Positions 3,160 to 4,122 of a DNA stretch of 4,122 bases are shown here, piece after piece (positions within the stretch are counted from its first letter, which is position 1; each line of letters opens with the position of its first letter). The position numbers were made by a program, and so were the translations under genes. The notes under the pieces were generated by a model, which saw only the letters and a program-made list of their open reading frames with translations, did not search any database and was not told the DNA's origin. The stretch lies in the IMG/VR virus record IMGVR_UViG_2734482004_000012, one strand, 5' to 3'. The stretch comes from a virus. Taxonomy: Duplodnaviria > Heunggongvirae > Uroviricota > Caudoviricetes.

Positions 3160-3186
3160 AAAAAACAAAACCCGCCGAAGCGGGTT
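3160..3186 (-). terminator. Rho-independent terminator ending the hok transcript
   Basis: Minus-strand RNA reads AACCCGC-UUCG-GCGGGUU followed by UUGUUUUUU (plus stem 3169-3175 / 3180-3186, loop 3176-3179, A-rich 3160-3168). UUCG tetraloop, GC-rich stem, U tract. Confidence 0.55.
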
Positions 3187-3189
3187 ACG

Positions 3190-3205
3190 TGCGGGTGCGT
3201 TGAGG
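3190..3205 (-). promoter_or_regulatory. 3' fold-back (fbi-like) element of the hok mRNA, complementary to the 5' leader element at 3568-3582
   Basis: Plus 3190-3205 tgcgggtgcgttgagg is the reverse complement of plus 3568-3582 cctcaagcacccgca apart from one extra g. It lies immediately upstream of the terminator hairpin. Confidence 0.45.
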
Positions 3206-3254
3206 ATGCCTGACACATCAGAGGTGGCGAGGGATTTCTCCCTCGCCGGGTCTC

Positions 3255-3567: not shown

Positions 3568-3582
3568 CCTCAAGCACCCGCA
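3568..3582 (-). promoter_or_regulatory. 5' leader (tac-like) element of the hok mRNA, complementary to 3190-3205
   Basis: See the paired element at 3190-3205. It is followed in the transcript by a 9-bp hairpin (plus 3532-3540 ctatctgcc / 3559-3567 ggcagatag). Confidence 0.45.
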
Positions 3583-3621
3583 GCAATTCTACTTAACTCC
3601 CGTCACCTCGCCAATATAAAA

Positions 3622-3711
3622 TCAATCAGAAAGGCGATCCATAAGAACAACAGCAAGACAATAAATTGCCATTACAGCCGCAATAGCTAGCGCACATTTG
3701 AGAACCAGCAC
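3622..3711 (-). CDS. Candidate small hydrophobic protein (29 aa, MLVLKCALAIAAVMAIYCLAVVLMDRLSD)
   Basis: Canonical SD AGGAGG (plus 3717-3722), 5-nt spacer, GTG start at 3709-3711, stop TGA at 3622-3624. 13 of 30 codons begin with G, a first-position bias typical of real coding frames, and the product is a single predicted transmembrane helix. Below the 60-aa threshold of the supplied ORF track. It conflicts with the alternative 96-aa frame 3626-3916. Confidence 0.3.
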   Translation of the reverse strand: MLVLKCALAIAAVMAIYCLAVVLMDRLSD

Positions 3712-3916
3712 GACAACCTCCTGTATTGGACGTACACCAGTTCTGATAAATATGAGGCTGTCTCATCATTGATTCAATATAACTATTGGGTATAGTTTCT
3801 GTGATTTTGTTCTGTAGAAATGGAACACAACAACCAGTCACCACCAGCACTTCTTTAAATACGCCAAGTCCGACGCAAGCTAACCTTCTAGTCCGCTTTG
3901 AGCGATCTGCAGACAT
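3626..3916 (-). CDS. Hypothetical Cys-rich 96-aa ORF (low confidence; alternative to the 29-aa ORF)
   Basis: Listed in the ORF track. SD is weak (GAAGG about 11 nt upstream). About 10 percent Cys and many rare codons (AGA, AGG, ATA, CTA, GGA). It overlaps the candidate promoters and the better-supported 29-codon frame. Confidence 0.15.
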   Translation of the reverse strand: MSADRSKRTRRLACVGLGVFKEVLVVTGCCVPFLQNKITETIPNSYIESMMRQPHIYQNWCTSNTGGCRAGSQMCASYCGCNGNLLSCCCSYGSPF

Positions 3917-4122
3917 TGCTAGCAGCCTTCTGTGTGAATTCTCAGGGAGCAGGTCGGCATAGCATCACGTTGAGGCTCTTACCCTACTTGTTGACACCAA
4001 CCCTAACTCCACAGACTGATTCATAAATTAGTAATCTGCGTGTTTCGCACTTTTCAGAAATGCTTTCATATTTTCATTAGGTCGCTCAATTTCGAAGTTA
4101 CTTCCATATAACTCTTGTAATT

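Follow-up and report, generated by a model that had tools for sequence, protein, structure and literature searches.

Organization of the locus

The DNA analyzed here (the window) is a 4,122-nucleotide (nt) stretch of a viral sequence, IMG/VR record IMGVR_UViG_2734482004_000012, that is 99% identical over its full length to the chromosome of Escherichia coli ATCC 11775. It is a section of a lambdoid prophage in which all genes are read leftward, in the order cargo genes, hokD, a gene for a 92-residue protein, and the genes for a DUF968 protein, RusA and a Q-type antiterminator. Our subject is the segment at positions 3745–3800, which lies inside a 617-nt gap, bounded by the hokD start codon (3410) and by the stop of the last cargo gene (4028), where RefSeq annotates no features. 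We consider it probable that this segment is the promoter region of a conserved and unannotated 29-codon gene for a small membrane peptide. In the lambdoid prophages of Escherichia and Shigella, it is also the constant left edge of a bay of variable cargo.

The right-hand 673 bases of the window are identical in many strains of the B2 group, including UTI89, S88 and APEC O1. Positions 3600–3905 are matched by ∼2,560 E. coli genomes out of 5,426 complete ones, in most cases over an unannotated block that accounts for ∼71% of the query, and they are also matched in four lambdoid phages. For comparison, we assembled nine annotated loci and 120 IMG/VR contigs containing the 29-codon open reading frame (ORF), giving ∼130 related prophage loci.

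Alignment of these loci places a sharp boundary to the right of the segment. Nearly all close relatives cease to resemble the window at ∼3905, and from there to the DUF977 gene the loci carry cargo in either orientation, comprising more than 25 different sets. Because similarity stops at a constant position and is followed by varied gene sets up to DUF977, the comparison identifies the segment as the fixed left border of a bay for variable cargo. The cargo boundary lies 115–140 nt upstream of the leftward promoter described below, beyond a non-coding and unannotated left flank (3798–3890) that is conserved in ∼2,500 E. coli genomes and from which some phages have lost 14 nt.

A conserved 29-codon gene

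The ORF (MLVLKCALAIAAVMAIYCLAVVLMDRLSD; minus strand, 3622–3711) begins with a GTG codon at 3711, has the sequence AGGAGG five nt upstream and specifies one hydrophobic helix followed by a charged tail. The reading frame is undamaged in 126 of 131 loci, always with 29 codons, a GTG start and GGAG. The same three features are all kept in the nine aligned loci, which differ from one another by synonymous changes. Polymorphic sites are distributed 6/5/18 over the three codon positions, the amino acid changes are conservative (A/T/V, V/I, D/E and R/H), and the pooled ratio of nonsynonymous to synonymous polymorphism (pN/pS) is 0.26, or 0.18 for the codons outside the search pattern. Because the reading frame, the start codon and the ribosome-binding site are kept and synonymous changes are in excess, a pattern of purifying selection, the alignments identify the ORF as a real, unannotated small gene. 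An initial annotation of the window had pointed to this ORF, and its intactness across the loci, its low pN/pS and its strong ribosome-binding site bear that suggestion out.

The peptide has no meaningful family match in Pfam, NCBIfam or PHROG. An exact look-up in nr returns it only under the names 'membrane protein' or 'hypothetical', a literature search by peptide sequence retrieved nothing relevant, and RefSeq lists no feature under the ORF. Outside Escherichia and Shigella, it was found only in three metagenome-assembled genomes assigned to other genera. Folding of the predicted small-ORF mRNA and of its antisense gave no z-score beyond −0.8. These prophages, present in roughly half of complete E. 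coli genomes, carry a peptide gene under purifying selection, usually beside hok/sok, and a toxin, an immunity factor and a modulator of membrane proteins are all possible roles for its product.

A probable leftward promoter defined by conservation

Two promoter-like pairs of hexamers are found in the segment. On the minus strand, which encodes the ORF, a −35 element TTGAAT (3772–3777) and a −10 element CATATT (3749–3754) are separated by a 17-nt spacer (plus-strand positions 3755–3771). On the plus strand, TTGATT (3769–3774) and TATAGT (3791–3796) are separated by 16 nt. These hexamers and spacers, and the ttgattcaa core in which the two −35 elements meet, read directly from the sequence, are positioned as the initial annotation had described them. 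Both sites combine sigma-70-type hexamers with a spacing in the 16–18 bp range. However, a promoter scan of the window found six sites versus 4.2 ± 2.4 in shuffled sequence, so a consensus match alone is not above chance. The rightward site is one of the six, with 9 of 12 consensus matches, and the leftward site has 8 of 12 (four of six in each hexamer, with A2 and T6 of the −10 element present). What separates the two is conservation, by which the leftward site stands far above chance in these alignments and the rightward site does not.

The 120 nt upstream of the GTG codon fall into eight sequence families at 80% identity, of which one is the BL21 deletion described below and six are informative for the promoter. 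The nine key positions (TTG and CATATT) do not vary across these six diverged families, whereas only 16 of the 66 upstream columns as a whole are invariant (hypergeometric P = 3e-7, a value that treats alignment columns as exchangeable). The spacer is always 17 bp long although spacer sequences differ widely, and variation in the −35 element is confined to its last three positions (TTGAAT, TTGAAG, TTGATT and TTGCTG). CATATT is invariant, at a fixed distance from the GTG start, in every family that retains the upstream region, and both elements are kept in ∼90% of the loci that have an intact ORF and sufficient upstream sequence. The predicted 5′ leader (minus strand, 3712–3744) is ∼31 nt long and contains the Shine–Dalgarno sequence AGGAGG at 3722–3717; GGAG and a block T(G/A)TACGTC within it are kept in all nine loci of alignment A1.

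We judge the leftward promoter to be probably functional because its key positions are invariant at a fixed spacing where the surroundings diverge. TTGAAT-17-CATATT is thus, with good confidence on comparative evidence, a working sigma-70 promoter of weak consensus with a start near 3742. The initial annotation had likewise placed a leftward promoter before the ORF, and it is the invariant hexamer positions and the constant 17-bp spacing in six families that support this proposal. Transcription would begin near 3742 (between 3742 and 3744), the short leader would present AGGAGG to the ribosome five nt before the GTG codon, and the peptide gene would be expressed independently of the cargo installed next to it and of the orientation of that cargo.

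The rightward hexamers and the palindromic core

The ttgattcaa core occupies positions 3769–3777, with arms TTGA and TCAA that are complementary around a central T. The leftward and rightward −35 hexamers share 3 bp, whereas 36 bp separate the two −10 elements and ∼61 bp the two predicted starts. The predicted leftward and rightward starts correspond to ∼1,399,770 and ∼1,399,709 in UTI89 (NC_007946.1), and to ∼2,719,743 and ∼2,719,804 in ATCC 11775 (NZ_CP033092.2). This layout raises the possibility that both promoters function and that their palindromic −35 overlap makes polymerase binding mutually exclusive, so that the segment would switch between transcribing the small ORF and making a non-coding RNA in the rightward direction. 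Both hexamer pairs are indeed present with good spacing and overlap by 3 bp. In addition, TATAGT lies within a 20-nt run that is invariant among 37 distinct close relatives, and the plus-oriented cargo found in about half of the related loci would need a promoter.

The comparative evidence argues against such a switch at several points. Given how densely variable sites are observed to occur, about one invariant stretch as long as 20 nt is to be expected. The palindromic core needs a T at 3769, and this position is G in ∼70% of close relatives, so the palindrome is a minority allele; the rightward −35 element in this group is GTGATT in ∼70%, TTGATT in ∼20% and TTGATG in ∼10% of cases, the last accompanied by destruction of the minus-strand −35. 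Outside the closely related family, TATAGT is absent and the plus-strand promoter has no counterpart, the corresponding hexamer positions reading TTACTT/GTTGCG, CTACTT/GTGGTG, TTGCTT/ATTGTT and so on. The sequence following the rightward promoter contains no conserved ORF, and its first ∼100 nt tolerate a 14-nt deletion in mEp460-type phages. The predicted rightward RNA folds no better than shuffled sequences (z = +1.15), and folding of both strands of 3800–4030 gave no z-score beyond −0.8. No covariance model of Rfam 15 matched the plus strand of 3800–4030 at E ≤ 1, and a search of the whole window at the same threshold gave only chance-level matches in 3600–4030.

Because most relatives lack T3769, mutual exclusion is not a conserved design feature of this locus, and a designed switch is unlikely. 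We assign the same low probability to the broader proposal of two functional promoters that alternate between the ORF and a dedicated RNA. The two corresponding suggestions of the initial annotation, a rightward promoter for a non-coding RNA and exclusion through the shared −35 core, therefore reduce to a consensus match in one lineage, with a weaker −35 in most close relatives, and to an allele that most relatives do not carry.

TTGATT-16-TATAGT is a lineage-specific match to consensus, and a selected function for it is doubtful. Promoter-like sites in AT-rich acquired DNA often fire, and this one may fire as well, but nothing shows selection on it. If active, it would produce no dedicated RNA; transcription would instead pass over the ∼95-nt conserved flank and a 24-bp repeat into whatever cargo is installed, and in the window the transcript would be antisense to the 3′ end of the cargo operon. 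An active rightward promoter would thus more plausibly feed the cargo bay that starts at 3905.

Two other candidate features in this region were rejected. A 58-codon plus-strand ORF (3786–3962) has its frame broken by the 14-nt deletion in relatives. A palindrome AACTAT-N5-ATAGTT (3781–3797), just upstream of the leftward −35 element, was considered as an operator repeated in the immunity region, and no second copy occurs in 12.7 kb of the prophage, a stretch that takes in the immunity region.

Relationship to hok/sok

The leftward promoter and the ORF lie immediately before hok. The Rfam model for sok and the hok leader (RF01794) matches positions 3579–3405 with 113 bits, which places the 5′ end of the hok mRNA at 3579; within 3600–4030 the same model gives only a chance-level match of 19.9 bits, and the segment is not itself part of hok/sok. 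The hok promoter found in the scan (TTGGCG-17-TAGAAT; minus strand, 3586–3614) has a −35 element at 3614–3609 that begins 7 nt after the ORF stop. Directly downstream of the ORF, hok is present in 100 of 113 loci and different sequence in the remaining 13. Because these 13 loci carry the ORF without hok, the ORF is a module in its own right that is mostly found together with hok.

The ORF stop (3622) is not separated from the hok −35 element by any terminator, and the leftward transcript therefore probably continues into hok and reads through hok/sok to a strong terminator at 3186–3169. Annotating the peptide gene, and knowing whether its transcript enters hok, would alter the reading of a common prophage module. 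Downstream of hok, the minus strand of 3165–3246 has a weak match to the Salmonella Gifsy-1 small RNA isrK (27.8 bits compared with a gathering score of 50; E = 0.0034) that spans two hairpins and the terminator.

The position of the ORF next to hok/sok suggests that it could be the toxin of a second type I toxin–antitoxin pair, controlled by an unrecognized antisense or trans-acting RNA. Its product is a small hydrophobic peptide of 29 residues with a single helix and a charged C-terminus, the gene has its own predicted promoter and a strong Shine–Dalgarno sequence, and linkage to hok/sok is tight. The only plus-strand candidate for an antisense promoter, TTAACT-18-TAAAAT at 3593–3622, would direct transcription against the 3′ end of the ORF. 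However, the −10 element of that site is not conserved (other loci have TGAAAT or TGTAAT), the ORF region has no match to an Rfam antitoxin family, and the predicted mRNA has an unremarkable fold (z = −0.78) in which the Shine–Dalgarno sequence is largely unpaired. The ORF also lacks hok beside it in 13 of 113 loci, which speaks against this role. We regard a toxin role of this kind as improbable.

Evidence weighing against the leftward promoter

Several observations count against the interpretation of the segment as a promoter region for the small gene. With 8 of 12 matches, the leftward site falls below the scanner's threshold of 9 of 12 and was not called, and the P value obtained for its conservation depends on the exchangeability of columns noted above. 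Part of the conservation reflects common descent, as the six families are homologous, and one family or locus has a recombination joint within the spacer. Ten loci (∼8%) carry CTCATC in place of TTGAAT and retain the ORF; this variant removes the leftward −35 element and keeps TTGATG on the plus strand. A search for published transcription-start maps of UTI89-type strains returned none that was usable, and no experimental 5′-end or expression data were found for either strand. Transcripts of the phage early operon or of the cargo could also run on into the ORF and provide for its expression.

A further point of this kind comes from the opposite side of the bay. A degenerate copy of the promoter block (TATTGAAGTGACGAGA...CATTAG) is found at the DUF977 stop codon (locus L001, 8750–8790, aligned with window positions 3745–3780), and in many loci the two copies form an imperfect direct repeat of ∼35 nt that brackets the whole cargo bay. 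Some of the conservation may therefore stem from recombination history and not from transcription. The DUF977-side copy has a degraded −10 element (CATTAG) at a spacing of 16 nt, and a good −10 element (CATATT) at 17 nt is found only in the ORF-proximal copy.

The contigs with CTCATC (for example L109, L104, L036 and L074) contain a perfect palindrome, TCTCATCA-A-TGATGAGA, at the positions equivalent to 3761–3777 of the window. The change looks like a template-switch (quasi-palindrome) mutation.

If neither hexamer pair worked, both would be chance matches in AT-rich non-coding DNA and the ORF would be transcribed only by read-through, from the early operon or from upstream cargo. The number of promoter-like matches in the window, which does not exceed that in shuffled sequence, agrees with this account, as does the uniform direction of the neighboring genes. 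A natural example is also available in BL21(DE3), where a deletion (locus L011, 2073–2135) fuses DUF977 at codon 99 with the small-ORF leader, placing the ORF directly behind a truncated DUF977 without its own promoter. Against this account, TTG and CATATT are invariant at a 17-bp spacing in six families whose flanks diverge, which is hard to explain without selection, and loci with plus-oriented cargo have nothing upstream that reads toward the ORF. The absence of any working promoter is accordingly quite unlikely, somewhat more so than the switch or the toxin role.

BL21 lacks the leftward promoter only because its deletion fuses a truncated DUF977 to the ORF leader, and the protein annotated there as 'DUF977 family protein' ends in an out-of-frame read through the ORF. 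We also considered, from the BL21 annotation, whether window positions 3600–3734 are a mere remnant of the DUF977 3′ end, and rejected this because the BL21 deletion itself creates the fusion.

Least probable of all, and by our estimate very unlikely, is that the block TATTGAA...CATATT owes its conservation to recombination and not to transcription, as a scar or joint that consists of a duplicated DUF977 3′ end and bounds the bay: the similar block overlapping the DUF977 stop codon does form an imperfect direct repeat with it across the cargo, but that copy is degraded in its −10 element and spacing, and both hexamers are kept in families that lack the duplication. A functional leftward promoter serving the peptide gene remains our preferred interpretation.

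An inverted repeat at the cargo edge

The exact edge of the variable cargo is marked by a 24-bp inverted repeat (3891–3914), GTCCGCTTT-GAGCGA-TCTGCAGAC, with 9-bp arms and a 6-bp center. It lies ∼95 nt downstream of the predicted rightward start, and the break in similarity falls inside it. An inverted partner, GTCCGCTTT-GTGCCA-nnAGCGGAC, is located at the other edge of the cargo (locus L001, 8652–8681), where it adjoins DUF977 and lies ∼45 nt upstream of the ribosome-binding site of the first cargo gene. A third kind of copy is found in phage P2 (locus L006, 1501–1524), between gpFI and the Z/fun hotspot.

Scanning IMG/VR yielded a set of 207 instances of the repeat, which adjoin 108 different cargo-side sequences and flanks of at least 44 kinds. 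Most often two sites face inward, and in some cases there is a third between them. The center is strictly associated with the side of the bay: it is GAGCGA in 53 of 53 lambdoid left flanks, GAGCGA or GAGCAA in 34 of 35 P2 gpFI-side flanks and GTGCCA in 58 of 58 lambdoid right flanks. Four cassettes are common to two contexts, following the lambdoid left flank in one and the P2 gpFI-side flank in the other. One cassette of 1033 bp is 99.7% identical between a lambdoid contig (L097, 11633–12665) and a P2-like contig (L173, 5664–6696), with the two repeats as the exact limits of the homology. For every cassette that occurs in more than one context, the left arm and the center go with the flank, and the sequence from the next base onward goes with the cargo. 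The repeat thus combines inverted arms and a short center (9+6+9) with a fixed junction, at the 3′ edge of the center.

These properties would be expected either of a recombinase core site with two heterospecific centers or of a shared 24-mer used for short-homology recombination. The fixed junction and the strict pairing of the center with the side speak for the core-site interpretation. More specifically, it is possible, although we advance the idea only tentatively, that 3891–3914 is the core site of an unrecognized site-specific system for cassette exchange, whose bays are bracketed by inward-facing sites with the centers GAGCGA and GTGCCA. If so, unrelated temperate phages, among them lambdoid and P2-like ones, would exchange whole defense or accessory cassettes in a fixed polarity, and the promoter region would be a permanent 'dock' flanking the bay.

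None of the cassettes examined contains a recombinase gene. One unrelated contig (L220) has a large serine recombinase gene beside a pair of repeats, and nothing links this recombinase to the repeat. Two other explanations for the repeat were rejected: it is not an intrinsic terminator, as no U tract follows it on either strand, and it does not behave as a structured RNA, as there is no covariation and C/T and G/A positions in the arms vary independently.

A search of the literature by repeat sequence retrieved nothing, and term searches in two papers on P2/P4 hotspots returned no mention of the boundary palindrome. The mechanism by which defense cassettes move between unrelated mobile elements is described as still unresolved in one of them, a 2026 survey (PMC13586616). 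A weak-consensus promoter before a small membrane-peptide gene is useful for annotation and for hok/sok biology but unsurprising, and the boundary repeat is the more unusual of the two results.

The same arms also occur elsewhere. Viral contigs of higher GC content carry them (GTCCGCT and AGCGGAC) in tandem arrays with the centers GGGTCA, GGGCCA and ACCCCC (L213, 310–1400; L214, 277–2740; L220, 100–170 and 6766–6835; also L146, L194, L168 and L215). These arrays adjoin capsid, terminase and methylase genes, and one such contig, L213, has no match among GenBank phages.

Cargo and other features of the window

To the right of the repeat, positions 3915–4027 are cassette-specific and differ between cassettes. 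The first part, 3915–3963, is ∼80% identical to the cargo-side sequence beside the same repeat in phage P2, and the string CAGGGAGCAGGTC within it resembles the leader and Shine–Dalgarno region of other cassettes but is followed by no start codon. This part probably derives from a previous plus-oriented cassette whose 5′ end has decayed. The remainder of the window (minus strand, 4028–4122) is the 3′ end of the cargo gene for WP_000354966.1, a 333-residue protein with a weakly GNAT-like C-terminus. The complete cargo of the prophage (locus L001, 6579–8558) comprises this gene and one for a 320-residue protein with a weak match to a HEPN/RES N-terminal domain. A PADLOC scan of the cargo proteins matched no system, and no convincing promoter for minus-oriented cargo was found in the right flank.

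Two differences from ATCC 11775 affect genes at a distance from the segment. The window lacks two nt (AT) at ∼1109–1110 inside the Q-type antiterminator gene, which splits it into ORFs of 175 and 103 residues, and a run of ten N at 2053–2062 stands in place of 36 nt inside the DUF968 gene. These are either errors of a draft assembly or, for the antiterminator, the mark of a real Q pseudogene.

Comparison with known systems

The hexamers of the segment resemble enterobacterial divergent sigma-70 promoter pairs in having sites on opposite strands, overlapping −35 elements and predicted starts ∼61 bp apart. They differ in that only the leftward member is conserved and the palindrome in the overlap is a minority allele. 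Symmetric bidirectional promoters have −10 elements that overlap on opposite strands and starts ∼18 bp apart. The arrangement described here is not of this type, since its −10 elements do not overlap but lie 36 bp from each other, and its predicted starts are separated by ∼61 bp.

The morons of lambdoid phages, reportedly recognized in comparisons of HK97 and HK022, are genes with their own promoter inserted between core genes. The peptide gene is similar: it is a small accessory gene with a predicted sigma-70 promoter of its own, located between the replication and nin/Q modules, and it could be expressed in the lysogen. Unlike a moron, it is not followed by a terminator of its own; the ORF directly adjoins the hok promoter and probably shares the hok terminator. 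With the type I toxins Hok, TisB, ShoB, Ibs, ZorO and DinQ, the peptide shares its size and composition (29 residues, one hydrophobic helix and a charged end), its prophage location and its place beside hok/sok. However, it has no sequence similarity to any family, no conserved antisense promoter and no sign of a leader fold that would block translation.

The boundary repeat invites comparison with the core sites of tyrosine recombinases and natural cassette systems, such as the shufflon sfx sites recognized by Rci, the attC and attI sites of integrons and lox-type heterospecific sites. It shares with them a layout of inverted 9-bp arms around a 6-bp center, two classes of center, each strictly tied to one end of the bay, and fixed junctions. 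The sequence GTGCCAA is also the core of the sfx sites of R64, and the string GTGCCAATCCGGT occurs in papers; we treat the match to the shufflon core only as a lead. The arms of the repeat differ from those of sfx, attC, dif and lox, and the two sites face each other and are not direct repeats.

A further parallel is the P2 hotspot next to gpFI, which has the same 24-bp repeat and even some of the same cassettes as the lambdoid bay. The difference lies in the setting: the bay described here is in lambdoid prophages, between DUF977 and the small ORF with hok. A boundary site shared between these two contexts, together with identical cassettes behind it, provides a concrete sequence handle on the movement of cassettes between phages.

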